This document shows positions 4,770 to 52,868 of a DNA stretch of 64,000 bases, in pieces. The notes under the pieces are model-generated. The model was not told the DNA's origin. It searched no databases and was given only the letters and a program-made list of their open reading frames with translations. Source of the DNA: Candidatus Thorarchaeota archaeon (GTDB lineage: Archaea > Asgardarchaeota > Thorarchaeia > Thorarchaeales > Thorarchaeaceae); contig JAUWOA010000001.1 of assembly GCA_030612365.1 (NCBI GenBank), positions 7,184-71,183 of the forward strand, given 5' to 3'. The position numbers were made by a program, and so were the translations under genes. Each line of letters opens with the position of its first letter. Positions within the stretch are counted from its first letter, which is position 1.

Positions 4770-4774
4770 TTATC

Positions 4775-14809: not shown

Positions 14810-16015
14810 TTAAGCTCTATGTTTTCTCGAGTCTTTCTGCAAAGTATGTACATTTTTCCTCATGAGAGCCAACGGAATTTTCCAAACCCAATTCTTATCA
14901 TGTTCCATTGCCTCTATCGAGCGATTGTTCATTTGGGTGTTTAGTGAGAGCAAATAGGACCCACGATTCAATACTTCATTTGGGTTATCGAAGTTATCGA
15001 AAATCCATTCAATGACTTCTGAAAGATTCTTACTGTGAAACGCATCCATTATTTCTCGATCAAATGATTCGCTTTTGTAATCAGCATATTTACGGGCCCA
15101 TTGGAAGAAATCATCATGGTATTTCTTATCCATCCCTTCAATATACATTCTGAATGCCATGGGATTAACCTTCAAATGGAGTTCTATTGGTTTCTTTTTC
15201 ATTTTTTCAGAGATGGTCTTACCACTCTGAAATTCACTAACTAATAATTCAGCCAATATTCCATAAGACCGAAATGCAATACTGTCCAGTATCTTTCGAT
15301 CCAATTCCAGTTGCTTACTAGTCGTTATTTCACTAGCTGCCAAAAACGCTCTACAAAATTTCTCGTATCGTTTCAAATTCAGAAAGGACATCTCCCTTTT
15401 CTCTTTTGAAAATAGAGAAGTCTGTTTACCCAGTAGGTTTTTGGAATAACGGTAAAGGAGTTTTTCAACTTGCCTGGTTTGCTGGTTAAGCAAGAGTGAA
15501 CCACTAGAAATAGGTAGAGAAACTTCACTCGAGTCCTCAATCTGAGCCTTTCTAATACGCTCCTGAGACTGTTTATTAGCTATTAATTCCATTTCAAAAA
15601 TCTGTTTCACTTTGGCGTACTGAGTAGTTTCACCTCTTCTTACCGGAACACGTCCTTGTTGAAGTTCGTGAACATATCCAGTTTTGGGAATCGATAGAAC
15701 CGCGATTACTTTGGTTTCAATATCCACGAAGTTTATGGCTAGATGTATAGGTGGGAAAACTCGAGAGTTTGAGATTTGATGAATGATAGAAGAATTGAAC
15801 GCTTTCTTATCAATACCAATCACTTCGCAATCCCCATTTCTAACACCAACTAGAATCCGACCACCGAAAGTGTTTGCCATTGCAGCTATATCCTTCGCCA
15901 ATTCCTTTTTTTCGGACTCCTTTGATAGGTTCAAGGTTACCTTAAAGTCCAGATTTTCACTCTCTCTACATTGTTGAATTATTCCTTTTACAACTTCATC
16001 CAAATCCTCTGACAT
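14810..16015 (-). CDS. Schlafen/AlbA_2 ('divergent AAA') domain protein, a second paralogue
   Basis: N-terminal NLDFKVTLNLSKESEKKELAKDIAAMANTFGGRILVGVRNGDCEVIGIDKK. Confidence 0.5.
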   Translation of the reverse strand: MSEDLDEVVKGIIQQCRESENLDFKVTLNLSKESEKKELAKDIAAMANTFGGRILVGVRNGDCEVIGIDKKAFNSSIIHQISNSRVFPPIHLAINFVDIETKVIAVLSIPKTGYVHELQQGRVPVRRGETTQYAKVKQIFEMELIANKQSQERIRKAQIEDSSEVSLPISSGSLLLNQQTRQVEKLLYRYSKNLLGKQTSLFSKEKREMSFLNLKRYEKFCRAFLAASEITTSKQLELDRKILDSIAFRSYGILAELLVSEFQSGKTISEKMKKKPIELHLKVNPMAFRMYIEGMDKKYHDDFFQWARKYADYKSESFDREIMDAFHSKNLSEVIEWIFDNFDNPNEVLNRGSYLLSLNTQMNNRSIEAMEHDKNWVWKIPLALMRKNVHTLQKDSRKHRA

Positions 16016-18279: not shown

Positions 18280-19542
18280 TTGACCAATTCCAACCCTAGT
18301 GTAGCAATAGGGCAATTGCGTGAGGCTTGGTCTGACATACGTACCTATACGTCAAGTATGTGGCAAATCTCAGCACTCTGTTTTTCAGTAGTTGCAATCT
18401 CTCTCAATGTATATTTAGCATCTCTTAACATGAATACTGAACTCCCAGCCATAGCAAAGGACTTCGCATTGATCATGGCACTGAGTTTTGTAGTTTTTAC
18501 AATTGCCACATTTCAATGGTTACGTGATAGTATTGTTAAAAGAGAACTGTATATTGGAAATATCGAAGTAGTTCTCTCAAATCTTACAACAGAAGATTCC
18601 GTCGTATCTTCTGTTCATTTATTTGATGTGACTTCTAGACCGCTCAAGTATGTACTAAGGCTGTTCTATTTAGTAGCTAGCATGTTGGTTTTACTTTTGA
18701 CCCCATCTCTCCTAGAATATCAACAAGTATTGATGTCGCCTGCCGCTATCCTCTCTATTCTAGTGATTATCGGAACCGCGATCGCGTTACGCTTTTTTCG
18801 AAATAGAATACACATACTCAGGAATCGATTCAAGTCGATTTTGCATATGCTTATCATCACTTCAGTCATTGTCTTTCTTGCTGAGCTCTATCTTCAAATG
18901 GAGGAGATTCCATTTGACTTCGCATTATCATCTTTGATTGTTGGTGGAACCATCTTTATCCTATATGCACTCTCAAAACAGCTTATGAGTTTGAATCTCC
19001 GGATAGATTTTGCTTCCCGTCTCACTCGTCTTCCAGTTGAGAAGAAGGCGCCTTATAGCTTCAGCAAATCCGCAACCATTGCTGCCCTGCAGATGATATT
19101 TGGCTCTGATTGGAAAGAAACAGATCTTGGTGTATGGTGTAAGTTGGGGGTGGATAAGAAATGGAACCTTCGTATCAGTTCCTCTGATTTCTTCAATAAT
19201 ATGCGCGATCGTGATATTCAGTTTGAAAAATCTATCCTTTTCCATACTCAATCGACGGTAGTAATTGATGTTGACAAATCAGACTTAGACTCTGTTGCAC
19301 AAGCATTCGGACTGGATAAAACTCAAGCTAATGCAATTACGCTGAACGCAAAACAAATACTAGGCCATCCTGTATTAGGGACAAATAACGAAATTGAGTG
19401 CATTATTATTATCAGATTGGTCAAGGATTTGAAATTCAATGTTAATGGAGCAATACCAGTATTCGCTTATCTAGTTGAAACATTGAAAGAACTTGCATTC
19501 ATCAGAAATCGATATGCTCACGAAGATGAATTAGGATGGTAA
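18280..19542 (+). CDS. Polytopic membrane protein with C-terminal HEPN-like (Abi_C-type) motif
   Basis: Several hydrophobic helices lie in residues ~20-230. The C-terminus LAFIRNRYAHEDE fits Rx4H. Confidence 0.4.
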   Translation: MTNSNPSVAIGQLREAWSDIRTYTSSMWQISALCFSVVAISLNVYLASLNMNTELPAIAKDFALIMALSFVVFTIATFQWLRDSIVKRELYIGNIEVVLSNLTTEDSVVSSVHLFDVTSRPLKYVLRLFYLVASMLVLLLTPSLLEYQQVLMSPAAILSILVIIGTAIALRFFRNRIHILRNRFKSILHMLIITSVIVFLAELYLQMEEIPFDFALSSLIVGGTIFILYALSKQLMSLNLRIDFASRLTRLPVEKKAPYSFSKSATIAALQMIFGSDWKETDLGVWCKLGVDKKWNLRISSSDFFNNMRDRDIQFEKSILFHTQSTVVIDVDKSDLDSVAQAFGLDKTQANAITLNAKQILGHPVLGTNNEIECIIIIRLVKDLKFNVNGAIPVFAYLVETLKELAFIRNRYAHEDELGW

Positions 19543-20148
19543 TTCCCTGAGTCATATAATTTCTTGGACATTTTCCACAGTCCAACTATGCTAATTTCGG
19601 TTTTGTGTCATACTTAGGAAAATGGGGAGTTGGACAGATTCAGAATGCTGCTATTTCTTCGTGTGAATTTCGTTAGCTGATACGGTTTCATACGAGTTCA
19701 CGTAAATCAATAAGGTCCGCATTAACTACTTCGCGAAGTGCCCATTCTGGATACTTGACAATATACATTGTTTTCCTCCGTTCAGCATCCCAGAATTTCT
19801 TCTCCTCCCTACGGTTCGTAGGAGCGAATGGATTTACAGGTTGAATCGATGCATAAGCTGGAAAAAGGAAATCAAACTTGAACCTGCATTTCACCAAGCA
19901 TCATCACAACTCCTAGACTCCCAATTTCAGGTATGGCTATTACAGACTGACTCCCCTCTGCTGGTTTTGGAAGATTCATGGCAAATTAGTGTTATTGTGA
20001 TTATAAAATCGAACCTCATGAATAATGAGAATGGTTGATAATGATAGCTTATTGTCAGTCATAAGGCGATTTTGTAATTGAAAAGAAACCTAATATCGAA
20101 CTCCACAGAATCTGGTAGACAACTGAAACACAATGGGAGAGGAAACTC

Positions 20149-21135
20149 ATGTCAGATGATGAAAACATGCCCGTATATGATGGAAGCATCGAAAAGTATC
20201 TCAATTATATATCCCGCATAGCCAGCAAAAGGCAAAAGCACCTGCTGAATTCGGCAGAAGAAGATTGTGATTATATCGCTAAATCCTATTGGCACACTTT
20301 CGGAATCACGGGAATAGTCACTTTCTCTTCTCAACCTTATCATCAGAAGGATCAAGATCTTCATTGGCAATATGTAAAGAAATGGATCGGAATCCGGTTT
20401 AGATTACAGGAAACTCTGAATATACTGCAGGACTCAATGACTCTAGGATTTCAAGGAAGAACATCAAGTGCATTCAATCTATTGCGTTCTGCTTTGGAAA
20501 GCATTGTGACTGGAGTATTCTACTATTTTCTGTCTCAGAACCATTATCGAGAAATCGCTCATATTGTGAAGCATAAAACAATTGGACGAAACAACCACAG
20601 GTTCCAGGATCTTGTTAAAGAAGCTATTGATAGCATTGAGGATAAAAGCGAAGTGCCATTAAGGCTGGAATCTCAAATTGCAGGAATCGCTTCAGAATCG
20701 CAGCCGCCTTTGATTTTGCCCACTTTTAGAGAAATGACTAGGCAAATCGCTGAATGGAAACTTGTGGGCCATTCAGCTGACGAAACAATGAATCTTCTAT
20801 ATAGAGGATTTTTCAACGAGTTCTCTACTTACACACACTCTCTATTTGAATCGACTTATGTCCAAAGTGGGACTAGCGCCGGAAACATCAATTTATTGCT
20901 AGGTTGGGATATCGATTTGAATGCCTTCCAAGAGTATTCACGTCTTTTCAATCTAACCTGCAGTACAGTCCTAATTCTCTATCTTTCATCGACATTAGAA
21001 TTACAGACAACCTCTGCTTTCTCTAAATTGTTTTCCATTTACCTAAATAAACATCCAGATGTTGAGTCCGTATTTGGTGAAATTACTGAACAGATTAAAG
21101 GGTTAATCAAAAAAAGTCGGAAAACGAATCAATGA
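20149..21135 (+). CDS. hypothetical protein (328 aa)
   Basis: ORF only. Confidence 0.4.
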   Translation: MSDDENMPVYDGSIEKYLNYISRIASKRQKHLLNSAEEDCDYIAKSYWHTFGITGIVTFSSQPYHQKDQDLHWQYVKKWIGIRFRLQETLNILQDSMTLGFQGRTSSAFNLLRSALESIVTGVFYYFLSQNHYREIAHIVKHKTIGRNNHRFQDLVKEAIDSIEDKSEVPLRLESQIAGIASESQPPLILPTFREMTRQIAEWKLVGHSADETMNLLYRGFFNEFSTYTHSLFESTYVQSGTSAGNINLLLGWDIDLNAFQEYSRLFNLTCSTVLILYLSSTLELQTTSAFSKLFSIYLNKHPDVESVFGEITEQIKGLIKKSRKTNQ

Positions 21136-21455
21136 AATCAAGGCGTGCGAGGAAGAGAGCCAATTGCTCATGTGTGAGCAGTTCAAGGCTGCTTTAGCAC
21201 TATTCGGACTCTGCCTCCTCCAGAGCCAAAAGGATGATGACGATGCAGAATCCGTCCTAGATAAGGTCGAAATGCACTCCAAATTGTTTGCGCCTGTTAT
21301 CATGCCGATGATAAACGACTTGTGGAACCTTCTGTAGGAAGGAGCTAAGGTCAGTGAATAGCTGGAATCTACAGAGTTTCGGTGCTAGCCTGCTTTGCTT
21401 ATGTAGAACTGGGTACCGACAAGGGTGATAAAGGAACAAGCTCATGTAGACAAGC

Positions 21456-22830: not shown

Positions 22831-25389
22831 TTGGAAAAGAACTACAAGAATCAGGTGTATGCGATCGAGATTACTGAGATTCCTAGGTCCTACTTCGAGC
22901 ATGCCATGAAGCATCTTGAGAAAAAAGCCTCCAGTCCGACACATGTCAAGCTTGAGAGATTCCTAAGTTCTCTTTCACACACGGATGTCCCAACTGGATT
23001 CAGGATTCAAGGGTTAGGAGGGAATGCTCGACTGCTCTACGTTACAAGAGGTACTAGGTCGAATATGGAAGCCATCAAGGAGAGCTTTGCAGCGCACTTC
23101 CCTGAGTTCGTGGTCCAGTCCTTATCCGAAGTTGGGTGCCCTTTGGTGGCTGGACAAGCGAATGCTGCGTTATTGACCGGAGTTCCCCAGCCAGCTGTCC
23201 AAGCATTGCAGGCAATGACAGAGATTATGGTCAACTTCAAAGGTAATTCATTATACCAAGTCTGGATGGTTCCTGCGGGGCCAAGTAGGGTTAAACGAAT
23301 TCTTGCAAAGAAGCGCTACAGGTCTGCTTTGGAGGGCTCCCAGAGGCAAAAAACGACTCAGACTTGGCTGGGGGGTCAAGAAACTGCAACACAGGCTGAT
23401 GTAAACGCCAAGATGAGCCTCAAACATCTTGAGAGAAACTATGAGAGATCAATCTCGAATCGCATTCTGAAATGTCAAGTCACATTGGCATTCTGGGATC
23501 GACCGGATTCGGAAGAGAAGCTGAGAACTGCTGTGAACGCATTGCTTGCAGCACTCTCATCCAGCCACAGAAACGCCAGGATGAAGGTCAGGTTTCTCTC
23601 AGGTAAGATTGCCCAAGAAGTGATTCGGAAGACGCTCATGCTAGAAAGGAGGAGGATGACAACTGAACTGCTGCCGAAAGAAGCGGTTTCATTGGTTGAA
23701 ACCCCCAGTGTCGAAGTGGGGACAAGAGTAGGCAGCCCAGCATCATTTTCAACATCTGGTAGCAAAACAACACAACCGACATCAGAGACCCTAGAATTCC
23801 AAACTGACCATATCGCTCTCGGTCATGTATTCCGTCACAACACTGTTGACAAGTCACGAACGAAGCTCATCGAGATGGAGCAACTTAGACTCCACACGGC
23901 CATCGTAGGAATGTCAGGGTCAGGAAAGAGCACTACAAAGAACAGGATTGTCATCGACGCCTGGAGGAACGGAATTCCTAGTCTGTTGATTGAGCCGGTG
24001 AAAGCCGATGCACGCATTCTCATGGGTGCCATTCCTGAGATGCGCATCTTCACGGTGGGCCGGGAGGATGTGGCTCCCTACCGCCATAATCCGTTTCTGA
24101 TTGACGCGAACGTGCCAGTTCAACTTCACATTGACTTGCTCTACTCATGTTTCTTGGCTGCATGGCCACTCTACGGCATTCTTGCTAACCATTTGCGCAA
24201 GGTGATAAATCGGACGTACAAGCATAATGGATGGGATTTGCTCAACAATCGTCCGGGAAAAACCATCACGCTGGACATGTTTCTAGAGGAAGCAGAAACC
24301 TATTCACGAAACCTCAGATATGGTGCGGAACTCAAGAAAGACTTCGAAGGAGCAATTGTGGCCAGAGCTCAGGATCTCTGTGACCAATCGCGCGCGGCAA
24401 TTCTCAACGCTGAAAGGAACTTACCAATCGATGAGCTGCTCTCAAAGCCAACCATCATCGAGCTGAAGCACATTGGTGACCCTAGCTTCAAAGCCCTTAT
24501 GCTTAGTCTCCTTATCATTCGTGTTTACGAATTCTTCGACAAGCTTGGTCCCGCGAATAAGCTCCGCAATCTGCTTGTAATCGACGAGGCGCATAGCTTC
24601 CTTGAAGAACTGCCCAGAATTGCGGACATGAGTGAGGGCGCAGTCTCAAGAAGGCAAGTTCTTGACCAGCTGTTGAACCTAATTGCAGAGGCTAGAAGTT
24701 CGGGACTTGGGCTTGTGATAGCTGACCAGAACCCTGCGCGTCTATCGCGTGATGCTCTCAAGACCTGCAACACTAAGATTGTACATCGTCTTACGAGTCC
24801 AGAGGATTGGGACTTGCTTGGTCGGGAAACAGGTTGTACTCCAGAGCAGGCACGGCACATAGGCGTTCTGAAGAACGGAGAGATTGTTCTACGTTTGCCT
24901 TCTGACGATGTTCCGACCAAGGTAAAGGTGTTCCATGACCCTGAGTTTCACCCCGACATGAAACAGAATTGGACAGATGATGATGTAAGAAGAAGAATGA
25001 AACTATTCTATGATACACATCTAGATTTTGCCATAACACCAAGAGCACCACAACTTGAATCCGGAACCAACAGAGATGACATAGTCCAACTAGCACTTCT
25101 GGTGGAAGATGTGGTTCAGGATGATGATTTTCGCAGACTGTATCTCGCATCAATAGGTGTCAAGGGCCAGGACGACACAGCACACCGAGTCGAAGAGGTA
25201 ATCGCCTTCTACGCGGCCAGCCTTCAGGTTCCGAACCTGAACCCGATTGAGTTCGCGTGGGTGCTCTTGAAACGATCAGTAGAGGTTCTTGGAGCGCCCT
25301 CCAACCCTCCAGACCGTGACTTGGTGGCTAAGCTAGTGGGTGATAACCTGCAATCGGGCTTGACTCCGCCCGAGAGCGGAGGGGTTTGA
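22831..25389 (+). CDS. HerA/FtsK/VirB4-like (DUF87-type) P-loop ATPase with ~330-aa N-terminal extension
   Basis: Walker A AIVGMSGSGKSTT. Walker B LLVIDEAHSFL. HerA-type motif LVIADQNPARLSRDALKTCNTKIVHRLTS (the QRP....QCNT.I..RL pattern). Confidence 0.65.
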   Translation: MEKNYKNQVYAIEITEIPRSYFEHAMKHLEKKASSPTHVKLERFLSSLSHTDVPTGFRIQGLGGNARLLYVTRGTRSNMEAIKESFAAHFPEFVVQSLSEVGCPLVAGQANAALLTGVPQPAVQALQAMTEIMVNFKGNSLYQVWMVPAGPSRVKRILAKKRYRSALEGSQRQKTTQTWLGGQETATQADVNAKMSLKHLERNYERSISNRILKCQVTLAFWDRPDSEEKLRTAVNALLAALSSSHRNARMKVRFLSGKIAQEVIRKTLMLERRRMTTELLPKEAVSLVETPSVEVGTRVGSPASFSTSGSKTTQPTSETLEFQTDHIALGHVFRHNTVDKSRTKLIEMEQLRLHTAIVGMSGSGKSTTKNRIVIDAWRNGIPSLLIEPVKADARILMGAIPEMRIFTVGREDVAPYRHNPFLIDANVPVQLHIDLLYSCFLAAWPLYGILANHLRKVINRTYKHNGWDLLNNRPGKTITLDMFLEEAETYSRNLRYGAELKKDFEGAIVARAQDLCDQSRAAILNAERNLPIDELLSKPTIIELKHIGDPSFKALMLSLLIIRVYEFFDKLGPANKLRNLLVIDEAHSFLEELPRIADMSEGAVSRRQVLDQLLNLIAEARSSGLGLVIADQNPARLSRDALKTCNTKIVHRLTSPEDWDLLGRETGCTPEQARHIGVLKNGEIVLRLPSDDVPTKVKVFHDPEFHPDMKQNWTDDDVRRRMKLFYDTHLDFAITPRAPQLESGTNRDDIVQLALLVEDVVQDDDFRRLYLASIGVKGQDDTAHRVEEVIAFYAASLQVPNLNPIEFAWVLLKRSVEVLGAPSNPPDRDLVAKLVGDNLQSGLTPPESGGV

Positions 25390-41226: not shown

Positions 41227-41494
41227 AGGGCATCAACATGTTGTTTGTTAGTACCTCGGTTGGTGAGAGAGATATACCCCTACGTAACCGAAGCCAAGCC
41301 TCTCCTCTTGGGTCGCCACTTAAGGATTTCGGACAAGCCAAGAAAAATGGACACGATTAGATATTCTCAAGAGGCTACTTGTAGAGCTATATGACCCGAC
41401 GGGGTATTCTCATGGAACCAAAGGCTGCTGTCAGACTTAGAGCAGGTGTCAAAATCATTTACCAATGGTTTCCAATGTCCTAGAGGAGTGTCCC

Positions 41495-41821
41495 CTACTG
41501 CAATTGAGCTCCATCGGTTGGAGGATATCTTAAACAGAAGCACATGTGTAAGACAATAACACCAGTCGTAATTGTGGAGCCCAACCGGCCTATGACCAAG
41601 CCATGGGTGGAATCAAGGAGTGCGACATCCGGAAAGATAGCATCAGGATAGTTGCGTACAACCATTTTCCATGTCAATGTATTCGACTGCTGCGAAGCGA
41701 AGGGTCCATTGCCAATGCTTGGAGCTGCAGCATGCCCAATGTTAGCACAAGGCATGTCTGAAGAACCTTTTTTCCTTTGAAACCATAGCTTGAATGCACT
41801 GTTTTCACCGGTACCGTCCAC
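41495..41821 (-). CDS. hypothetical protein (108 aa)
   Basis: ORF only. Confidence 0.25.
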   Translation of the reverse strand: MDGTGENSAFKLWFQRKKGSSDMPCANIGHAAAPSIGNGPFASQQSNTLTWKMVVRNYPDAIFPDVALLDSTHGLVIGRLGSTITTGVIVLHMCFCLRYPPTDGAQLQ

Positions 41822-41998
41822 TAGTGTGTGGTAAGCCGATATGCTCGTTCAGCCTAGAACGGCACATGGCCGCCACCCCCGCCAGACAGCAATACATTCT
41901 GGTAGTCACTGCCCAAGTAGTGGTGGGATGAATCATACGCCTTGACTTGTACCTTCATCTCAACATAGCCCTGAATGAGAGTCCAAGAGACATAGTAA

Positions 41999-42349
41999 TC
42001 ACTGCCATAGTAAGGTGTAATCTGTACCTACATGTATATAGCTTGTCCAATATCCTGAGCTGCTCTTGTACTTCACATAGACCTTCACATAGTCCATTGC
42101 TGAGTAGTGGTTCACACGGACGTATCCAGTTGTACCTGCAGACTCCCAGGCTCTGTAGATCAGTAAGGATGCGGGAATGGGATCGTTGGCGTTCAGTGGA
42201 TTGTAGCCCCAGCTGACTTCATTACCATCGCCAATTGCGTCTCCATCAGTATTCCAGTTCAGTGGATTTGTACCATGAGAGATCACCTCGGCACCGTCCG
42301 AGAGGCCATCGTTGTCTGAAGGCTGAAGCAACTCTTTGCAGCAATGCAT
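41999..42349 (-). CDS. hypothetical protein with Asp-rich calcium-binding-like repeats
   Basis: DNDGLSDGAEV and DGDAIGDGNEV resemble thrombospondin type-3/EF-like repeats. Confidence 0.3.
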   Translation of the reverse strand: MHCCKELLQPSDNDGLSDGAEVISHGTNPLNWNTDGDAIGDGNEVSWGYNPLNANDPIPASLLIYRAWESAGTTGYVRVNHYSAMDYVKVYVKYKSSSGYWTSYIHVGTDYTLLWQ

Positions 42350-42477
42350 ATCTAGCAGAGCACTAGCTAGTTCTTGACAAAAAGATACGATTCGATATTG
42401 TTGCCCTGCAATCTGGATTGTGGCTGTGAAGTTGTCACTAGGTTCGATTGTGAGGATCGCCTCACAGAGTGTTCAGA

Positions 42478-43917
42478 TTACAATGAACGGTTATGGTTTG
42501 CTTCAAGGCTGTGAATCGCTGTAACAACCAATTCAATGCAAACGCATGCAGAACCTACCTTACCGGCAATCGACGGCACAGTTCTCCCTTCGTCTCCTGA
42601 TATCAGTTCCTTGATGTAGGTGCCACCTTGAACCTTGAAGTAGCCCTCCAGCTCATGGCTTCTCCTCCTCTTCAATCGCACCTCGTAGATGTGCTTCTTC
42701 CTCGTCAAGTCACTTCTTCTGTGTGCCACTCGCGTTGGAGTTCTCTGGTCAAGGTCAATGTTTGTTAGTTCTCTTTCTGCTCTTCTTACTTCATCATCAG
42801 TCAATTCTCGGTCAGTCTTGATGATGGCTGAATACTCCTTGATGTTCTCAGAAGATTCACTCTTGAGTCGTTGCAGATGTTGTCTGTTAGTAGGTCGCAA
42901 GCCTTCGACTTCTACCTTCTTGCGTGATTTCTTTCTGATTTTCTTCTCCAGCTTGGGAAGATTCAGCGTTCTTACGCGAGGTTTACTAATCTCCACAACA
43001 AATGGACGTCCAGACCCAAGCATCAGAGCGTCCACATCTTCACGTCCTGCAGCATGAAACTTGAAACGGGTGCCTTTGGCGGCTTCTTGGATTGGCAAAC
43101 CAACATACTCCGAAATGGAGTCCGGGTACCTTCTCCCGGTATTGTGGCAAGCGTCACATCCTTTGCCATTGCAATCTGAACAATCCCATCGGCTTTGGGG
43201 GACTCCCACCACCTTCTTTCGATACCTACCGTAGATAAACAGCGGGTTGATTTGCAGCCTAACCAAATCGTTCTGCATATCATAGACTACAACTAGTTCT
43301 GGCTTATCAAAGTCAACGGGTTTGTCAAAGATCGCGCTAACCTGTTTCCCGAACTCCCTATTGAAATCAGACCTCAGGGTTTCTCCGTAGATGAGATTAT
43401 GTTGTCCTTTCAATTCATCTTCTCTTTCCGCGAGGATTGGGTGTGGTATAGACCCTGCGAGGACGGTGTGGAATTCGATGTCTTCTGTGTCCCTCACTGC
43501 CCGTTGAACGATCTCTGGTATTCTGTCGAATGCACAATCAGCGTCCACGGAACAGAGGTAACAGACCTTGCCCTTCTCATAATCCAGTGCTTCCTTCTCA
43601 GCAAGAATCTGCGCTGGAGAGAACATGCCGTTGCCAGCAAGAATCGTAAGTAGTTTCCTGCCTTCGTCCTTCGCACCAGCCTTGATTATCTCATCAGCCT
43701 TCATTGAGAGTATAAGCTTGATTGAATTTCCTCTCTGGTCGTTCGATGTACCGGTACTCAACCAGGCGAACTGCCGACCCAAGCATCTGTCGCATAGAGG
43801 ATATTCCTCAAGTAAGGATGCTGCGGTGTCTAGTATCCCTGGATTCTCTCTACCCACCATGTAGTAGGGCCTCATCGTCACCCGGCATGCACTTTGCACA
43901 TAAAGATGGCTATTCAC
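42478..43917 (-). CDS. pus10: tRNA pseudouridine(54/55) synthase Pus10
   Basis: N-terminal zinc ribbon CDRCLGRQ, THUMP-like region and C-terminal catalytic domain. Its ~480 aa size is typical of archaeal Pus10. Confidence 0.75.
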   Translation of the reverse strand: MNSHLYVQSACRVTMRPYYMVGRENPGILDTAASLLEEYPLCDRCLGRQFAWLSTGTSNDQRGNSIKLILSMKADEIIKAGAKDEGRKLLTILAGNGMFSPAQILAEKEALDYEKGKVCYLCSVDADCAFDRIPEIVQRAVRDTEDIEFHTVLAGSIPHPILAEREDELKGQHNLIYGETLRSDFNREFGKQVSAIFDKPVDFDKPELVVVYDMQNDLVRLQINPLFIYGRYRKKVVGVPQSRWDCSDCNGKGCDACHNTGRRYPDSISEYVGLPIQEAAKGTRFKFHAAGREDVDALMLGSGRPFVVEISKPRVRTLNLPKLEKKIRKKSRKKVEVEGLRPTNRQHLQRLKSESSENIKEYSAIIKTDRELTDDEVRRAERELTNIDLDQRTPTRVAHRRSDLTRKKHIYEVRLKRRRSHELEGYFKVQGGTYIKELISGDEGRTVPSIAGKVGSACVCIELVVTAIHSLEANHNRSL

Positions 43918-45131: not shown

Positions 45132-45158
45132 TCTCGACTCATTCCTGATGGCAACCGT

Positions 45159-47339
45159 TCATTTTAAGTTGGACAAACTCGGACATGCCGCATTTGTCCG
45201 TCCAGGAACGACACTGGACTCCATTTGAATCTTGACTATGTTGCGAGCCGCATTCACATCTGCATGCAGACTCATCTGACAGTGAGAACAAAAGAAGTAC
45301 TCCCCTCCCTTTGTTTCTTCAGTATCAAGTGGATTCTGTACTCGAACTCCTCTCTCACCACATCCACTACATATCTGTGATGTCCACGCGGGGTTCACCA
45401 TCCAGACACCACCCCTGTAGTGACCGAGAGCCGCACGTCGGTATCTCACGCCCTGAATCAACAGGCCCCAAAGATTGGTTGAGAGGTTCCAGCTATGGGT
45501 GTGCTTTCCACCAGCACCCTGAAAGAACCGGAGGTCCTCGAAGCACACGGTCTTGACTCTCCTGCTCTCGCAGAACCAGACTGTTTCGCAGGCAACTTGG
45601 TGAGAGATCTCGCGTCCGAGGCGTCTGACCTTTCGCCACACTGACCCCAGCTCCCGTTCTCTTTTCAGAATGTAAGCTGGAGCTATCAGCCCCGGATGCT
45701 TGCTCTCCCAGTTGTTCCTTCTTCTGGCTATCTGCGATGTGAGCTGCTTAGCCCGTTGTCTGAGTTTCTCGCGCTTGATGAACAGATTCTCCCGTCCAAT
45801 AATTCTTTCTTCGTAGTCCCCATCACAATTGCTGATAGAGACTACTACTGGGTTCCTGAGGCCTCTATCTACTCCGGCGTACTTCGTGCGTGATTGAGAT
45901 GGTAATACAGACTTCAACAACTCTTGACTAGGAGGCCTAAAGGGAATTGAGAGGCTAGCCTTCCCTTCTCTAAGCTGGATTGTTGGCGGAGCACACCTTC
46001 GTGTGTCCTTTAACCTTGTGACTTCGGACCTCAGCCGTTCAATCTCACCACAGTCATTGGTTCTTCTTGACGTGAGCTTGGCTAGTGTTCTCTTGGCTTG
46101 ATTAAGAGCAACCATGTTCATCAACTGGCTACTCATATCTTCGAAATGCGAGGCTCTGAACTCAAGGCGAAGTGCTCGCTCGCTATCCCCTCTTCCCAAG
46201 GCCTCTCTCGCTTTCCTCCGTGCTCTCTGAGCCTTATGTGGTAGCCAATTGAGAAACCTGAATCGTACTGTCTGGCTCCTGTAGGGAGATTCCTTGTCGG
46301 TTTCATGACCCAGCACACCAGGTGGGGTCTTCAGGTACAGGATGATCTCATCCTGTCTATCAGGGTCAACCTTGAACCAGTATCCTTGTCCTGTTGTATT
46401 CTCTGTGGAAGCGGAGAAGTCTTCCGTTTGCATTTTAAAGACAGGAGATGTGAAGGGGAAACCATAAGTGTGCCACATCTCGACCTGCCTACACAGGGCA
46501 TGCCTAATCTGGGCACTCTGAGGAGCATCACTTTTGAGGAGCTCCCGAACTCTTGCTCGTTGCTTGTTCCTCCGTCCACCTCCTAGGTGGAATGGGGGGG
46601 TGCTGTTCGTCTGATCGAAAGCGGAGAGAATAAGTTCGTCAAGAGCTCGCCTCAGTTGCTTGCACACTGACAGAGCATAGTGGAATCCTGACCCATTCCT
46701 ACGTGTCACGGAATCGCGAACCCTCCGTACTAGCTCAGGAGGTATCCGTTTATTGCCAACCAACCGGGAGATATTTTCACCTGACTCCTTGAGAATACGC
46801 AGAAGAGCACGCAGGAGTTCTCTGCGTGAGTAGTCAGCAAGGATGATTCGTGCTGCAGCTTCAAGTGCATTCCTGAACATTCTCTCAAAGACAAGTTGTC
46901 CGAACTCGTTGTCCTGTTCCCAGTTCAGGTTTGCCTCTTCACGAAGAATCACATATCCCCGACAGCGGGCAGTATCAAGTTTCCACCCAATGCTTTTAGC
47001 CTGAGCGTACGACTTGTAGACCCTTTGTAGGATTAGGTTGACAGCCTGGATGTATCTATCGAAGTGCTGGGTAAGTATGCTCAGATCAGCTACAGAACAC
47101 TTCTTGCCTGAATTGTTCTGCAAGCCTGCGGGCACTTTGTCAAGCGCTCCTCTTGAAAAGAGGAGATTTGGTTTTCTCCCTTGACCCTTTCGAGCTGTCT
47201 GTCGATTGAATGAGTTCAATGCGAATGTCTGGGTAAGAAAGATTGGTGAAGAGGAAATATAGCTACCATCCATTGTTTGCTGTTTTGACCCTGTTGAGAT
47301 CTTAGACTCGCGGGGATGGCGCCGCGACTTGTTCTTCAC
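45159..47339 (-). CDS. TnpB/Cas12-like RuvC nuclease (726 aa) with ~490-aa N-terminal extension
   Basis: RuvC-I YAGVDRGLRNPVVVSI (D at ~491). RuvC-II ...VKTVCFEDL (E). Zinc finger CSGCG...CSHC. RuvC-III HADVNAARNI (D). All three catalytic positions are intact. Confidence 0.75.
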   Translation of the reverse strand: MKNKSRRHPRESKISTGSKQQTMDGSYISSSPIFLTQTFALNSFNRQTARKGQGRKPNLLFSRGALDKVPAGLQNNSGKKCSVADLSILTQHFDRYIQAVNLILQRVYKSYAQAKSIGWKLDTARCRGYVILREEANLNWEQDNEFGQLVFERMFRNALEAAARIILADYSRRELLRALLRILKESGENISRLVGNKRIPPELVRRVRDSVTRRNGSGFHYALSVCKQLRRALDELILSAFDQTNSTPPFHLGGGRRNKQRARVRELLKSDAPQSAQIRHALCRQVEMWHTYGFPFTSPVFKMQTEDFSASTENTTGQGYWFKVDPDRQDEIILYLKTPPGVLGHETDKESPYRSQTVRFRFLNWLPHKAQRARRKAREALGRGDSERALRLEFRASHFEDMSSQLMNMVALNQAKRTLAKLTSRRTNDCGEIERLRSEVTRLKDTRRCAPPTIQLREGKASLSIPFRPPSQELLKSVLPSQSRTKYAGVDRGLRNPVVVSISNCDGDYEERIIGRENLFIKREKLRQRAKQLTSQIARRRNNWESKHPGLIAPAYILKRERELGSVWRKVRRLGREISHQVACETVWFCESRRVKTVCFEDLRFFQGAGGKHTHSWNLSTNLWGLLIQGVRYRRAALGHYRGGVWMVNPAWTSQICSGCGERGVRVQNPLDTEETKGGEYFFCSHCQMSLHADVNAARNIVKIQMESSVVPGRTNAACPSLSNLK

Positions 47340-47550
47340 CAGTCTTTCACCGTCTGTCTGTTTCGGCCTTTGTATAAAAGGACATACAAAAGAGATGGAA
47401 ATATAGCTACCAGGGTCATTTCATAGCTATATATTTGATATTATTATTTTATTCCAATTGATGAAATTATGCCAAAATTTGTAACTGCTATGGTTCTTCT
47501 TTACTCGCAGCAGTTAGAAATAAATACTTTCGCGAGTACAAGGGGGTGGA

Positions 47551-50500
47551 ATGCAAAAATCAAGAGGGCGACCTCGCAAGCCATTACCTAGACATCCTAA
47601 TCGGGTCATAGCAACTGCAGTCCAGAAAGGTCTGTCTGCTACCCTTGAGATGCAGAGAAGTATCAAGAACAAAAACACCGAAAAAGTTTATGCTAGTTCC
47701 AGAGAAACTTGGTCAGCTGCTAGGAATGTCTACCTTCAGACTAAGCGGCTTCGGAGAGCAGACTTCTCATATATCATGAAGGCTGAACCCAACATGAGAG
47801 GTAATCTTCTCAACATGTTGTACGAGAAGGCCGCAGCTTATGGCAACACTGAAGTCTCCAGAGTTAAGAGATCTAGCGATACAGTAGGTCCGCTCAACAT
47901 CCGTTTCAACGTATGCGGCGCAGCATTACGTGACTTCGCGATGACAATGTACCCCTTCCCGGATCCCGCATTCTTTGGAACACGAATACATCATCATGAT
48001 TCAAAGCGGAAGACCTTCAGGATCATGGGGTATGAAGCAGACTCGTACGGCCCAATGACCCCTCTGATTCATCCCGACATGGTGCCCATGGACTTCGTTG
48101 ATGCAATCAGGCATCACCTCGACTACCTTGCTACTTACTGCTACATCTATGATGTTCCGCCGAGAGACACGGGACGTTACTGGAAACTCCTTCAGCTCCA
48201 TGCACGAGCGTACTTGGACTACATATACTCAGAGCATCTTTATGGAAAAAGAGCCTTCAGAGTTGGCACGAACGCCATACTACAGACGCTCAAGATGGAC
48301 ATCCAGGAACATTACAGTGTCCGCACTGGAAACGCGCCAACCGTCACTGGTTCAATAAACCTCAGGAAGCCATCTTTCTCGATGGCCTTTTTCGAATCAC
48401 AAATCGCAGAAGCAAAGGCTGTCGGCATCGAACATCCCTCTCTGAACGAGCTTGAAAGGATACTCCAAGGCGGATATCGAATCGGAGAACACGAGGAGGA
48501 ACCTTGCCTGACAGAGAATGATGTCAGGCACATCTGGAGAGGAGCACTAAGAAGGAGCAGAAGAATTGGCTCTCAGGTCCACCGGCACATCTCCGACCAA
48601 CTGTGCAGCCCTTGGAGTCTTGCAGAAGCAATTCGCAATGGGGATTCATTAGGCAGCAACGATGGCTATCTCCTATGTTCCGAGGTCTCGGTGAATACCG
48701 GCCTCGGAGCGGGACGGGTCGACATAGTCCTGTTGAGGAGAGAGGTCACACCTGACGGGTTGTGTGTATATTGGAAACCCATCATGGTCTTGGAGATCAA
48801 GACTCGACTAAGCCAATTCTGGGAGTTGACACATGAAACAATCAGGTCCATGTCCAGAAAGAGCCATGGCTTGCTGGACCGGAAAGTCGGAGGTTTTTCC
48901 TTTCGCAGCAGAGTGCTCGACGGCGAGGAGTGGGATGCTATCGTACGTGCCACGCCGAACAAAGGCACTATCAAACAGGTTACGGCGTATACAGACGCTG
49001 TCTGGGGAGAGTACAAGAGAGTAACAGGAACAACACAAGACAATCCGATTCGTGTTGGTACTCTGTTGCTGGATGCGACAGAGAATATTGGTCTGACCCG
49101 CAAGGCCATTCGGAGCCTAGTTATCAATGCGTATGAAACGATGATGAACAAACGAGGAAGCATATCTCGGACACTGATTGAGCCCATCTTGAACGACGAG
49201 TTACCAAGGATTGCTGTCGTGATACATGAACGCGATGAAACGAGTGAGTCAGAAGGGACGTTCATCACCCCCTCTTGGAGGGCTGTCTATGATCCTTTGG
49301 AGAGCGCGAGCAATATGGGCAGAAGGTTCATACTCGCTCTGTTCAGCCAGTCGCGAACCTCAGCTGGCTTCTCAGCAGGATGGATTTCACAGTATTATCA
49401 TGGTCTTCATCTTGTTCGTGACTTGTTGGCGGCCAACTCGGATAGTGGTGTCATCTGGTTGGATCTAGCAGATGAGTTCTCGCACCCTCAGCTTGCTGAG
49501 GCTAGGTTGCGTCTTCGTCCGTACAGCTATCAAGAGAAGGATGTCCTTCGCAGTCAGCCTGAATACATCCGAGAGCTCTTCGAATCGATACGGGTGGTAG
49601 GTCTGCTTCGCGAAACTGACAACTTCCTGTTCAACAAAGGGCAACTACCCAATCTTCGACAACACCTCACTGAAATAGTGAATGGAAGGAAACTGATTAT
49701 CGTGAGCGGCTGGAGTACGCTCCAAGAGGCAACCCCGGAACCACACCGGGCTAGGCTGAATGAGCTTCTCAATGGCATCATTACCCAGCTGCCCAATGGT
49801 AGATCTACAACTGTTCTGTGGTTCGATGCTCCTGTACCAGGAGAGACAAGTTCAGCGGCGTACTCATCCCGCACCCTCCTTCCCTTCTATGACTCTTCGC
49901 GGCTCCGAGGTGAGGTAAATGAGATTATCTGGAACCTGCCAGTCGCTCCAAAGAGCGAAGTCCTACCTCAAGAATGGTGGCTGCCAGTTCTTGCTGCGAC
50001 ACCGTTCCATGATGACATCAGAGCTATTGTCAGTCAGAATGCAGAAGGCTTCGATGTTCGACTAACGCTTGTCCCGCCATTGACGAACTGGTCTAAACGG
50101 TTCCGGAATGAGGGGCTCGGAGTTGTGACAAAAACCGAATCGACTGAAGAAGTAGTACCTTACTCCACAGCGAGAGAGCGAATGAAAGTCCTTGCACTCA
50201 CGTTGCTGCCCTGGCTCGTTGAGCTGTGGCCTTCAGTTCGTCTGGATACAGAAATAGGCTCTCGCATCGTATGTGATCTCCTTGGCGAGATAGAATCCGA
50301 ATATGAACATGGGAGTGAGAGTGTTTCCGTTAAGGTCCGAACTATAGAGGGGGTTCCTGGCAAGGAACCGACCATATTGCAGCGACTTCGCTACCGTCCC
50401 AAAACTAGCCGGGGCGGTAAGTCATTCGCTGCCACCAGTATAAACACTATCAACTCAAGACGGCTCTACCGCGGTCCACGGAAACTGAAGACGAAGCCAC

Positions 50501-51774
50501 GGTGCCTGACCCAAGTCACACCTCTGAGGGCAAGTGTGAACCTGCACGCTGAAAGATTCAACCAAGCTGTGTGGTTTGGCCTACGACTATCCAGCGAGAG
50601 TCTGGGATTCGATTGGATAGCCATTCAAGATGCCAAAGCCCCCTACGGGGTGAGAGTTGGGCTCTTCTATCAACGAGAGGAAGGAACCAAGAGCGAAAAC
50701 CTTGACTGGTCCATCACACGTCTTGATGTAGTTCGGGAATCCGGGTTCAAACTGGACGAATTCGACCAAGTCATTGAGTATGCTTTCACGCGGGTTCACG
50801 AAGCGAAGTCTATGGAGGACTCAAGTCAAGAGCACATGTGGCTCGCATGGAGTAGACCAGACACAGAGTCTAATTGGGCCTTGGCTGGCATGCTTAGCCA
50901 TGTACTTCGGCCCCGCTCAACCACCGTGAGTCTTAGGGCCTTTGCAATCAAGTCTGAAGGAGTATCGACAGCGGCGACCCCTCCCATAGTCGACTTTCCG
51001 GAGAATCTGACAGGTGCTGCAAGACAGGCAATCGCACAGGTCGTCAGGAGGTTGTTGAGAGTGAGATATGTCAGGGTCAGCCTTGCCATGGAGGAAGACG
51101 CATGTGAGGTGCGCTTTGTGGATGAAGGCGACAGAATCCTCCGCAGGGTCAAGATTAGAACAACGGTGGATGTCATTCGACTCTTGCGTTGGCCGATGAC
51201 CAAAGGCAGACCTCTAAGATTGGGGCACGACCTCCGCGTGACCTGGAACCCCTTTCATGACTTCTCACAAGTGCGCCCCGACATTGACTATGGGAAACTC
51301 CGGTATCTGGAACCATTCGTCATCCTGAACCGTTCAGATGACCAGACAGGAACACTACCACCTTTCATGTCAGATGTATTGGCAGAGCATAGACCTGTCA
51401 GTGTTGTGATTCTCCATGATGCGGCAGTCTGTCCTCTCACGGATTTCTCAAAATGGGAGCATGCTAATTGTTGGAGGGTCCAAACCTCGGATAAGGGTTT
51501 TGGATTTGACAATAAGAGTGAGGACGCATTATCTGACAGGCAAGTCTACGCCGTCTTGAAGAAACTGGCCCAGACTGTGGGAGAGAAGAGAGTGCAAATA
51601 GAGTTTGACCACGGACAAGACGAGAACGACCGTCTTGTCTTTCATGAGAGTGAGTTCATGCGGAAACTCTCAAAGGAGTTTAGGCACGTTCCTTTGCATC
51701 CACTGGCCCCGGGACATACGGCAAAGATCAAGCTAATGCTCAGACAACGCAGTCGAGCTAGGAAACGGAGATAG
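47551..51774 (+). CDS. Giant (1407 aa) protein of unknown function containing a PD-(D/E)xK nuclease-like core and an AT-hook-like N-terminus
   Basis: LCSEVSVNTGLGAGRVDIVLLRREVTPDGLCVYWKPIMVLEIKTR fits E ... hhhD ... hhExK. N-terminal RGRPRKP. No Walker A found. Confidence 0.6.
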   Translation: MQKSRGRPRKPLPRHPNRVIATAVQKGLSATLEMQRSIKNKNTEKVYASSRETWSAARNVYLQTKRLRRADFSYIMKAEPNMRGNLLNMLYEKAAAYGNTEVSRVKRSSDTVGPLNIRFNVCGAALRDFAMTMYPFPDPAFFGTRIHHHDSKRKTFRIMGYEADSYGPMTPLIHPDMVPMDFVDAIRHHLDYLATYCYIYDVPPRDTGRYWKLLQLHARAYLDYIYSEHLYGKRAFRVGTNAILQTLKMDIQEHYSVRTGNAPTVTGSINLRKPSFSMAFFESQIAEAKAVGIEHPSLNELERILQGGYRIGEHEEEPCLTENDVRHIWRGALRRSRRIGSQVHRHISDQLCSPWSLAEAIRNGDSLGSNDGYLLCSEVSVNTGLGAGRVDIVLLRREVTPDGLCVYWKPIMVLEIKTRLSQFWELTHETIRSMSRKSHGLLDRKVGGFSFRSRVLDGEEWDAIVRATPNKGTIKQVTAYTDAVWGEYKRVTGTTQDNPIRVGTLLLDATENIGLTRKAIRSLVINAYETMMNKRGSISRTLIEPILNDELPRIAVVIHERDETSESEGTFITPSWRAVYDPLESASNMGRRFILALFSQSRTSAGFSAGWISQYYHGLHLVRDLLAANSDSGVIWLDLADEFSHPQLAEARLRLRPYSYQEKDVLRSQPEYIRELFESIRVVGLLRETDNFLFNKGQLPNLRQHLTEIVNGRKLIIVSGWSTLQEATPEPHRARLNELLNGIITQLPNGRSTTVLWFDAPVPGETSSAAYSSRTLLPFYDSSRLRGEVNEIIWNLPVAPKSEVLPQEWWLPVLAATPFHDDIRAIVSQNAEGFDVRLTLVPPLTNWSKRFRNEGLGVVTKTESTEEVVPYSTARERMKVLALTLLPWLVELWPSVRLDTEIGSRIVCDLLGEIESEYEHGSESVSVKVRTIEGVPGKEPTILQRLRYRPKTSRGGKSFAATSINTINSRRLYRGPRKLKTKPRCLTQVTPLRASVNLHAERFNQAVWFGLRLSSESLGFDWIAIQDAKAPYGVRVGLFYQREEGTKSENLDWSITRLDVVRESGFKLDEFDQVIEYAFTRVHEAKSMEDSSQEHMWLAWSRPDTESNWALAGMLSHVLRPRSTTVSLRAFAIKSEGVSTAATPPIVDFPENLTGAARQAIAQVVRRLLRVRYVRVSLAMEEDACEVRFVDEGDRILRRVKIRTTVDVIRLLRWPMTKGRPLRLGHDLRVTWNPFHDFSQVRPDIDYGKLRYLEPFVILNRSDDQTGTLPPFMSDVLAEHRPVSVVILHDAAVCPLTDFSKWEHANCWRVQTSDKGFGFDNKSEDALSDRQVYAVLKKLAQTVGEKRVQIEFDHGQDENDRLVFHESEFMRKLSKEFRHVPLHPLAPGHTAKIKLMLRQRSRARKRR

Positions 51775-51779
51775 TGGTT

Positions 51780-52403
51780 TCACTTTGAGCGATGGCCTTC
51801 AACTAGGTGAGTGTCCCAAAACTTGTGTGCTCGACGTTTCTCTCCGTCCACCTCGTACTCCTCAAGCCCCAAATAAGTTGTCATTATCATGAACACGGTG
51901 GAGTCCTCAAGGGGGTCCACGACGAAATCCTGAAACTGTTCTCCATGCATACTGATGAGCTTGAAGAGCGACGATGGGAGTGATATTGTGGCTTTCCTTG
52001 CCTCTACACTCTCATACTCGGGGTACAGCTGGCAAAAATAACCCCAGAATCGGGGGTATTCTCCAGTCGGTCCTTGGACCATGTGTACTTCTGTGGGAAC
52101 AAGACAACACCTCTGCTCGACCATTTCTTCATTCCACTGCAACTGCTCATATGGCTCCTCGTAGTCCAAGTCCTCTATTGCGCTCATACTCTCAGCTGCA
52201 ATGAGCTGAAGCTGGAGGGTCTTGAAGTCGAGCTCTTCATCTTCTTCATTCTCATCCCCTTCAGGAAACCAGTCAAGATCGACAATGACTGGAAGACCCA
52301 TCATTCCACGTAGTATGTCCTCTTCCTGCTCACCGAAAGGCAAGGTTTCTGGGTCAAGATCTAGGAGGTCCTCATCTCCTTTCAAATCATCGGATTGCCC
52401 CAA
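51780..52403 (-). CDS. Highly acidic hypothetical protein (207 aa, Asp/Glu-rich)
   Basis: DEDLLDLDPE..EGDENEEDEELDF.. is distributed over the whole length. It is convergent with the giant gene. Confidence 0.4.
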   Translation of the reverse strand: MGQSDDLKGDEDLLDLDPETLPFGEQEEDILRGMMGLPVIVDLDWFPEGDENEEDEELDFKTLQLQLIAAESMSAIEDLDYEEPYEQLQWNEEMVEQRCCLVPTEVHMVQGPTGEYPRFWGYFCQLYPEYESVEARKATISLPSSLFKLISMHGEQFQDFVVDPLEDSTVFMIMTTYLGLEEYEVDGEKRRAHKFWDTHLVEGHRSK

Positions 52404-52868
52404 GACATGTCACTCCCTTTGTCAGTCTTACAGAGGTGCTGTTGTACTTAAGGTTGGCCGTATCATAATGGTTGCATACCCCATGGATTAACCAGCAGTT
52501 CGGGCGTATCTCTTCCATCCAGCATGTTCTGGATATTGGCTCCCCTAGTCACCCTAACATGTCTAGGATCGTCCAACTTCTTGGCAGCCACCCTTCCTGC
52601 TACGTAATGTAGCTAGTTCGCTTTGGCTGCAGCCGCTGTGGTTTCGTTACCATGAATGGGTTTAGAACGATATCGCCCAAATGTGCAAGTGCATCGGTAT
52701 ATCCGCTCGCCGCCTACAGCGGGAGTTTCGTGATGCTGTTGTCTTGGCTGGCTTGATAATGAGTATGTACGTTCATATTCGAAAATGTTCAATATTGTCT
52801 AAGTTTGGTGCAGCTGTTTGCAACCCTTTATTATCTCTCGCCTAGGTTGGAGTTGAAGAGCTGACTGG

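Follow-up and report, generated by a model that had tools for sequence, protein, structure and literature searches.

The DNA described here is a window of 64,000 nucleotides from the genome assembly of a Candidatus Thorarchaeota archaeon (GCA_030612365.1, contig JAUWOA010000001.1), and all positions are counted from the first letter of that stretch. Thorarchaeota are Asgard archaea, the archaeal lineage closest to eukaryotes. Two divergent genes stand back to back in the window. One, at 47551–51774 on the plus strand, is the largest open reading frame (ORF) of the region and encodes a protein of 1407 amino acids. The other, on the minus strand, encodes a relative of TnpB, the Cas12 ancestor that usually owes its mobility to small Y1 or serine recombinases. 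With a third gene of 207 codons and a non-coding arm of ~420 bp, they make up a discrete mobile element of 7,669 bp (45154–52822, give or take up to 3 nt at the junction). Its only candidate transposase is the large protein, whose N terminus probably resembles Cas1, the integrase of CRISPR systems and casposons.

Two divergent genes and a third

A sequence-only reading of this stretch had located the large gene correctly and called its product an orphan, a description that does not survive a search. A word-indexed search with the 1407-residue protein returned 48 homologues at 27–93% identity, mostly full-length, and all source-named members among them are from Thorarchaeota. An exhaustive profile search with residues 1–1000 found at least 179 clusters at 50% identity; E was ≤ 1e-30 for 136, which are mostly 1,400–2,350 residues long. 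The distant members come from Heimdallarchaeota (for example, OLS23950.1 of LC_2); all named members being Thor- or Heimdallarchaeota, the family is restricted to the Asgard archaea. Three diverged copies occur together in one metagenome-assembled genome (MAG; locus tags ACFFER_). None of the profile libraries we scanned (Pfam, NCBIfam, PADLOC, PHROGs and PDB profiles) matched the whole protein, its single domains, the profile of the 48 sequences or the distant members, the sole exception being C-terminal tetratricopeptide repeats in some of the Heimdallarchaeota proteins.

The neighbouring gene is TnpB-like, as the earlier reading had said. The C-terminal third of its product matches PF07282 (1.5e-12; 47.9 bits against a cut-off of 26.3), the PADLOC models Cas12u3 and Cas12f (Cas12u3 at 3e-20) and a PHROG transposase family (3.7e-19). 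Matches to Cas12f, TnpB and Cas14a in the PDB (E 1e-4 to 4e-3) are confined to residues 462–686. An RNA-guided nuclease is the predicted role of this protein, whose RuvC D-E-D triad is intact: GVDRG in RuvC-I (D469; 45861–45875, minus strand), CFEDL in RuvC-II (E579; 45531–45545, minus strand) and HADVN in RuvC-III (D672), the last grouped with a zinc finger, CSGC...CSHC (together 45252–45371, minus strand). With a GTG start, the ORF spans 45159–47339 and encodes 726 residues, and the gap to the large gene is the 211 bp that the sequence-only reading took for a divergent promoter region. The genes are divergent as stated; the gap is better put at 277 bp (47274–47550), because the homologues start at an internal ATG (MDGSY..., 47273), which gives a gene of 704 codons at 45159–47273. 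This intergenic region is AT-rich (GC 0.395) and presumably holds both promoters.

We fetched ten distinct loci carrying relatives of the large gene (L001/2, L003/4, L005/6, L007, L008/9, L010, L011, L012, L014/15 and L016), which range from 90% identity down to a distant Heimdallarchaeota member. In every one of the ten, a divergent gene with a Cas12f1-like TNB domain precedes the large gene, split by frameshifts in three. Members from two Asgard phyla, as little as 27% identical, keep the pairing, and the outer flanks are unrelated, ranging from ribosomal proteins and RNA polymerase to RadA and transporters. This survey of neighbourhoods bears out the suggestion that the giant protein and the TnpB-like protein form one functional module. 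Their pairing, which the earlier reading thought unusual, is not new. Asgard 'aCas1-TnpB' loci (Cas1H-Asgard-1 and -2) were proposed to be transposons by Altae-Tran et al. (2023, PMC10691335), in a passage that credits aCas1 to Makarova et al. (2020, CRISPR J 3:156).

The partners fall into two classes. Class A, found in the window, L001/2 and L010, has GVDRG, FEDL and HADVN motifs with CxxC...CxxC and a catalytically complete RuvC site. In class B, to which six loci in the partner alignment belong, the RuvC-II glutamate is replaced by glycine (AIGRLKNIR), RuvC-III reads NADRN and a long, conserved tail closes the C terminus; such proteins are the 'rearranged catalytic site' type described in the passage on Asgard loci in PMC10691335. 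L014 also carries a class-B TnpB and a class-B end. An exact 16-nt direct repeat, GGAAATATAGCTACCA, lies over codons 2–7 of the window's TnpB-like gene (47253–47268) and again in the intergenic region (47397–47412). Its copies are 144 nt apart, both are kept in L001 and both are absent in L010; an operator, a duplicated start and a guide-like self-target are among the possibilities.

Convergent with the large gene is a conserved accessory gene of 207 codons (51780–52403, minus strand). Proteins of about 200 residues related to its product occur in five of the ten loci as well as in the window (L001/L002, L003, L005, L012 and L014) and share 76 invariant columns. The N-terminal half is acidic, with 33 Asp and Glu in the first 100 residues, and the conserved C-terminal domain contains a stretch, KKATISLPSxLxK, reminiscent of ribbon-helix-helix proteins. 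Library and profile searches gave no family match for this protein. Its profile gave only insignificant matches (E 0.1–0.6, residues 82–140) to SET-domain histone methyltransferases (NSD1/2).

Ends, empty sites and a terminal RNA

The limits of the element come from comparing its copies. L001/L002, the locus whose large protein is 90% identical to that of the window, carries a copy at a different location in another MAG. Against it, blastn aligns the window in a single block at 92% identity (45154–52622 and 52704–52828), with no homology on either side. The boundaries are sharp to the base: |ACCGTTCATTTTAAG... lies 5 nt beyond the stop codon of the TnpB-like gene, and ...GCAGCTGTTTGCAACCCTT| closes the other end. 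The TnpB-proximal terminus, or right end (RE), reads ...TGTCCAACTTAAAATGAACGGT| on the TnpB strand (45154–45175, minus strand) and is kept in the window, L001 and L010 despite their unrelated flanks. At the distal side, the non-coding arm (52404–52822) is 91–92% identical to L001 right up to the left end (LE; ...GCAGCTGTTTGCA|). An 81-bp segment of this arm, 52623–52703, is found in the window only and is missing from the L001/L002 copy.

The same location without the element was retrieved with the flanking geranylgeranyl-reductase (GGR) gene as probe. Four Thorarchaeota MAGs (L017, L018, L019 and L023) have an empty site between GGR and Pth2, in which window position 45153 is joined to about 52823 and the flanks are ~93% identical; GGR also adjoins Pth2 in three more distant genomes (L022, L024 and L025). 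The empty site reads ...CCTGATGGCA ACCCTT TATTATC..., and the occupied site reads ...GATGGCA|ACCGTTCATT...[7.67 kb]...CTGTTTGCA|ACCCTTTATTATC. Abutting the element at 52823–52828 is the hexamer ACCCTT, or AAGGGT on the TnpB strand, a candidate transposon-associated motif (TAM). It occurs once in the empty sites and also abuts the L001 copy. A similar hexamer, ACCGTT, ends three diverged class-A elements (window, L001 and L010) in unrelated flanks. ACCGTT must therefore belong to the element, whereas ACCCTT pre-exists in the target, and it follows that no target sequence is duplicated beyond the ambiguity of 1–3 nt. On the TnpB strand, AAGGGT thus lies 5' of the element, whose own last six letters are AACGGT; the arrangement in both the window and L001 is AAGGGT|LE...RE AACGGT|.

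These observations bear on one rival explanation, in which the two genes are a domesticated, immobile host pair and the TnpB derivative regulates the large gene through their shared promoter, in the manner of TldR, a nuclease-dead TnpB at a fixed host locus. The shared divergent promoter would suit such regulation, as would the exact 16-nt repeat, conserved in L001, with copies at the TnpB-like start and between the genes. Polymorphism largely refutes it. The block is present or absent among close relatives, has a copy at a different locus and exists as multiple diverged copies in one MAG; the RuvC triad of class A is, moreover, intact. We regard domestication as hardly tenable.

Nor is the element marked by its composition. 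The sequence-only reading had judged the large gene, by eye, to be more GC-rich than the surrounding core genes. Its GC content is 0.509, that of the whole element 0.500 and that of the immediate flanks 0.483–0.496; the window falls lower, to 0.42, only in its distant first 22 kb. We have accordingly dropped any GC or codon anomaly. The element is also a mosaic. From 48502 rightwards (L014 position 10898), the window and L014 are 87% identical, and to the left of 48502 they are only ~70% identical, in the Cas1-like N terminus, or cannot be aligned. As L014 carries a class-B TnpB, this break in identity indicates that the left module, TnpB plus the Cas1-like domain, was swapped by recombination.

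A guide RNA scaffold can be traced in the class-B relatives. There, DNA conservation runs ~105 nt past the tnpB stop codon and ends after GTTCACTCAcc. That sequence is the motif, GTTCACTCA, which Altae-Tran et al. (PMC10691335) reported downstream of tnpB in aCas1-TnpB loci; five class-B loci match it exactly, and L012, L014 and a second copy of the RE in L003 differ from it at one position. Positions just past the motif are 7943 in L003, 7949 in L005, 7982 in L007, 7817 in L008, 7948 in L011, 7890 in L012 and 7898 in L014. Beyond GTTCACTCAcc come ~10–14 variable nucleotides and then a semi-conserved RGGTYA, for which reason the class-B boundary or the guide segment may be a little further out than the motif. 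For eight class-B sequences, each comprising 120 nt of the ORF and the downstream segment, RNAalifold gave a structure of ~235 nt with 64 pairs, of which 24 are doubly compensated. Three of its helices fall in the non-coding part, and the non-coding helices 10–12 carry 14 of the covarying pairs. The structure finishes within the published motif, where conservation breaks off. In this structure, 95% of cells are paired, against 35–45% when the partners are slid, and the 24 pairs with double changes compare with 9.5 ± 2.2 in shuffled alignments (0/500 reached the observed value) and 1–7 in slid ones, a contrast somewhat inflated by the structure having been derived from the alignment on which it was tested. 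Covariation thus supports an omega-RNA-like scaffold at the TnpB-proximal end of class-B elements.

The RNA matters for the nature of the module. The sequence-only reading had imagined targeting plus an effector, and this can be framed as a two-component defence system in which the TnpB-like protein would find the target by RNA guide and the giant nuclease would act as effector, both carried on a mobile island. The strict linkage of the two genes in 10/10 loci fits that picture. So do the nuclease sites of both proteins, which appear to be active, and the DNA methyltransferase or restriction-like genes near L003, L007, L010 and L014. Those neighbours, however, are not part of the conserved block and vary from locus to locus; the unit that moves consists of only these three genes with defined termini. 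There is no CRISPR or guide array in the window (Tandem Repeats Finder and repeat search), a difference from type V CRISPR-Cas, and the large protein has no match in PADLOC. Finally, the conserved RNA scaffold stops precisely where the element does. This leaves flanking DNA as the sole source of a guide, which is the logic of a transposon. Sharp ends, empty sites and a copy at another place in a different genome mark the pair as the core of a mobile element, and a defence role strikes us as improbable.

Domains of the large protein

The protein begins with an AT-hook-like motif, RGRPRKP, at residues 5–11 (47563–47583, plus strand). The sequence-only reading had remarked on it; it is there, and it is kept only in a Thorarchaeota subgroup, about 36 of the 126 family members of at least 1000 residues over which we counted conservation. 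That reading had also recognised no domain besides a nuclease core, which the empty sequence profiles would endorse; a structural model of residues 1–720 tells a different story. Built by AlphaFold2 (AF2) with the protein family as multiple sequence alignment, the model is confident (pLDDT 85). When it was compared with the PDB by Foldseek, the nine matches of highest probability were all Cas1, from four different Cas1 proteins (3god_A, E 0.022 and probability 0.99; 9p11_C, probability 0.96; 5fcl; 9p1d), each over ~250 columns. Two further Cas1 structures, 9h1h and 4wj0, stand lower in the same list, and no match other than Cas1 exceeds a probability of 0.25.

The part of the protein concerned is a helical domain of about residues 14–320 (47590–48510, plus strand), and its conservation follows the active site of Cas1. 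Invariant or nearly so are E79, R83, G98, E101, R104, N116, N120, G123, R127, Y161, H174, D181, D184 and R187, as is the pair Y97-G98; E79 and H174 are conserved in 100% of members, D181 in 98% and D184 in 96%. By manual comparison with E. coli Cas1, E79 corresponds to E141, Y97-G98 to Y156-G157, N116 to N178, G160-Y161 to G198-Y199, H174 to H208 and D181-x-x-D184 to D218-x-x-D221, so that the Glu/His/Asp(Asp) pattern of the Cas1 metal-binding site is present in co-linear order. A greedy hhalign alignment, itself not significant (E 0.39), independently reproduces this mapping. Its templates were a single E. coli Cas1 and then a Cas1e profile of 120 sequences, and neither gave significance. The profile is shallow because the search for Cas1 homologues returned close relatives only, all at least 77% identical and nearly all 85% or more. 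No match to PF01867 or another Cas1 profile was obtained, even when the domain was scanned alone or in distant members. From the ranking of folds, the active-site pattern and the literature, rather than from statistics, we conclude that the N-terminal ~320 residues are probably, though not provably, a highly diverged Cas1-like domain.

The second domain is clearer. The sequence-only reading had pointed to a PD-(D/E)xK signature, and the SEV, GRVDIV and VLEIKTR motifs at residues 376–419 are indeed at the heart of what is, at the level of motifs, clearly a nuclease domain of the RecB/Cas4 type (about residues 355–500; 48613–49050, plus strand). Its catalytic-type residues are E378, D391, E415-x-K417 and the RecB/Cas4-type Q476xxxY480. 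Among those of the 126 members with a residue at the position, the others being gapped, D391 is found in 121/121, Glu or Asp at 415 in 122/122, K417 in 122/122 and Q476 and Y480 in 122/122; E378 is 98% conserved. The order of strands and helices in the AF2 model is compatible with the α-β-β-β-α-β core of this fold. In a library of viral structures, a phage exonuclease ranked first and a PD-(D/E)XK protein fourth, which lends weak support. Pfam has no match to this region, and the family alignment shows no conserved cysteine around residues 355–500 that could correspond to the Fe-S cysteines of Cas4.

Further along come a conserved α/β region of about residues 600–900 (49348–50250, plus strand), in which D638, G720 and R824 are nearly invariant and for which Foldseek found no structural match, and a C-terminal His/Cys cluster of H1289, C1294-P1295, H1304 and C1307 (51409–51474, plus strand). 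The cluster, judged by its conservation in the family, is possibly a metal site.

A putative transposon and its candidate transposase

We think it likely that the locus is the core of a 7.67-kb transposon-like element specific to Asgard archaea, in which a Cas1-like plus PD-(D/E)xK protein is paired with a TnpB-like one. The large protein is its candidate transposase, by exclusion and by virtue of its two catalytic domains; library scans found no other recombinase among the three genes. It would catalyse excision and integration. The scaffold of the guide RNA would come from a transcript covering the TnpB-like gene's 3' end together with the adjacent terminus, and its guide, by analogy with the TnpB of IS200/IS605 elements, would be read from the flank next to the TnpB-proximal end, 5'-TGCCATCAGGAATGAG... 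on the minus strand. If the TAM is the target motif AAGGGT, the TnpB-like nuclease would recognise exactly the element-free junction. Again as in IS200/IS605 elements, it would cut copies of the insertion site that lack the element, which would favour retention and homing. The 207-residue protein would be a conserved accessory.

Several observations weigh against this. Homology to Cas1 is not significant by sequence in Pfam, NCBIfam, a PDB profile search or hhalign (E 0.39), and the best Foldseek E value for Cas1 is 0.02. The AF2 model shows no evident N-terminal β-sandwich domain; it begins with four long helices, and a β-hairpin appears only at residues 140–171. More than 800 of the 1407 residues have no assignable function; the ~900 residues outside the two domains hold conserved blocks without a match, and the AF2 model of the C-terminal half is poor (pLDDT 65) and yields nothing above noise in Foldseek. 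The mapped ends have neither terminal inverted repeats nor a target-site duplication, only the similar hexamers ACCGTT and ACCCTT, and concerted integration in the style of a casposase or Cas1 would be expected to leave a duplication. This argues that the large protein, if it is the transposase, does not act like a casposase. The target motif rests on two independent insertions (window and L001) and one related insertion. At the class-A end of the window, three sequences give no significant RNA structure (z = -1.15), only two short conserved hairpins, and the published GTTCACTCA motif is absent, the element there ending in ...AATGAACGGT. Exact-match scans of JGI metagenomes for the empty junction and for the distal terminus returned 0 matches each.

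Among known systems, the element resembles IS200/IS605 elements such as ISDra2 and IS608 in having TnpB at one end, with a structured RNA (seen in the class-B relatives) that overlaps its 3' end and stops at the boundary; in inserting, with no target duplication, beside a short specific motif to which its own end is similar; and in its asymmetric termini with subterminal hairpins. Unlike them, it encodes neither a Y1 TnpA nor a serine recombinase, having instead a Cas1-like plus nuclease protein of 1,400–2,350 residues; it is ~7.7 kb long; and its TnpB-like protein is much larger (530–726 residues), with an unrecognisable N-terminal part. Casposons offer a precedent for a mobile element with a Cas1 homologue as integrase outside CRISPR, and some relatives of our element sit beside tRNA genes. 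It differs from casposons in lacking a family-B DNA polymerase, terminal inverted repeats and a 14–15-bp target duplication, and in a Cas1 domain that is far more diverged, fails PF01867, has no evident β-sandwich and is fused to PD-(D/E)xK. The combination of a RecB-type PD-(D/E)xK domain with QxxxY and a Cas1-type domain in one polypeptide recalls Cas4-Cas1 fusions. Here, unlike in those, the Cas1-like domain comes first, there are no Fe-S cysteines, ~900 additional residues follow, and the window has neither cas2 nor a CRISPR array.

The likeness to IS200/IS605 raises the question of whether the large protein moves the element at all. An unlinked TnpA of that family, or an integrase, might mobilise it in trans, leaving the large protein as cargo or as an accessory that acts, for example, on DNA ends, in repair or in copy-number control after cleavage by TnpB. 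Insertion at a short motif with no duplication, by an element whose end AACGGT resembles its target AAGGRT, is the signature of IS200/IS605 rather than of a casposon; L005 contains a canonical IS605-type TnpB, and a small element with the same terminus exists without the large gene. Set against this, no Y1, serine or DDE recombinase is encoded in or beside the ten loci, except for a resolvase ~1 kb past the large gene in L010. The large gene is, besides, full-length, and the catalytic residues of two domains are invariant over 126 members, as expected of an enzyme that is needed. The passage on these loci in PMC10691335 also gives aCas1 the role of transposase. Mobilisation in trans seems to us unlikely, and we return to the large protein as the candidate transposase.

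The published aCas1-TnpB loci are the closest comparison, although the match of this family to the published set rests on shared features, not on accession numbers. As described in the relevant passages of PMC10691335, those loci also occur in Asgard hosts, pair a large, extremely diverged Cas1 homologue with TnpB and contain two distinct TnpB groups, to be compared with our classes A and B; like them, relatives here carry GTTCACTCA about 100 nt downstream of tnpB. The window's class-A element departs from the description in lacking that motif and ending 5 nt past the tnpB stop codon, and the published loci are 'often flanked with repeats', whereas the ends mapped here have no terminal inverted repeat or target-site duplication. 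Empty sites, exact termini, the AAGGRT target, the PD-(D/E)xK domain, the third gene and a covariation-supported RNA go beyond the text of those passages.

To our knowledge, the class has been noted only briefly and never experimentally tested. The element type is thus already known from bioinformatics, and the window holds a further, well-delimited Asgard aCas1-TnpB putative transposon. The window and its sister genomes supply the termini, the empty target site, the candidate target or TAM motif and the catalytic residues, and the relatives supply a model of the scaffold. A Cas1-derived enzyme joined to TnpB in one element bears on the repeated origin of CRISPR adaptation and effector modules from transposons, and on what else enzymes of the Cas1 fold can do. 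The apparent lack of target duplication, if it holds, is unexpected for an integrase of the Cas1 family. We would go further only tentatively, to a proposal we find more doubtful than not, namely that the large protein represents an uncharacterised class of transposase. In it, a Cas1-derived domain with a fused RecB-type nuclease would insert at AAGGRT^T with no duplication, the TAM of TnpB would be the target of the transposase, and short derivatives such as that at 41329–42490 would be moved in trans. In a stronger version, TnpB and its guide RNA may bring the large protein to its target by physical contact, which would amount to RNA-guided transposition.

That candidate derivative is a second insertion specific to the window, of 1,162 bp (41329–42490, plus strand), without a transposase and ending in ...TTACAATGAACGGT. 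It is missing in four sister MAGs (L018, L019, L020 and L023). Its terminus (42470–42491) matches the RE of the main element at 19/23 nt, in opposite orientation. It abuts AAGGAT, with the junction AAGGAT|...AACGGT|, and its empty sites hold the motif once. The insertion may be related to the main element as a non-autonomous form. Inside it lies an ORF of 116 codons with Asp-rich repeats like those of thrombospondin type 3. The class-A terminus TTAmAATGAACGGT recurs at the end of this insertion, in L010 and twice in L005, where the 14-mer is found exactly or with one mismatch (~0.015 expected by chance). The L005 copies are at 19044–19057 and 23168–23181, although the intact element of L005 is class B. 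The canonical IS605-type TnpB of L005, of 408 residues, is encoded at 20011–21237, 6 kb from the aCas1 element.

Other features of the related loci concern their surroundings. In L003 and L014, tRNA genes lie within ~100 nt of the TnpB-proximal end, and the L011 region is bracketed by two tRNA-Ile(GAT) genes (3466–3543 and 14789–14866). L003 (1892–2121) and L011 (about 3263–3400) have second class-B terminal RNA-like segments 4–6 kb beyond the intact element, that of L003 including a remnant of the TnpB C-terminal tail. Between segment and element are genes for NucS, a DNA methyltransferase and a BNR protein in L003 and for an AP endonuclease and SLFN/AlbA in L011. These may be tandem or nested insertions, or the outcome of cargo capture. 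DNA methyltransferase or restriction-like genes also lie a few kb away, outside the conserved block, at L003 3650–5701, L007 14765–16966, L010 15471–16073, L014 5954–7606 and L008 1–198. Elements of this kind may favour variable or defence regions, or the proximity may be coincidental.

The window has two further features. Around 22–30 kb, the GC content steps from 0.40–0.44 (1–22000) to 0.47–0.52 (30000–64000), a change that is unrelated to the element and could reflect a genomic island or an assembly join. At 4773–4988 lies an imperfect tandem repeat of about 3 copies, whose 65-nt period is made up from a 12-nt unit, CCTGTCCTACTA.

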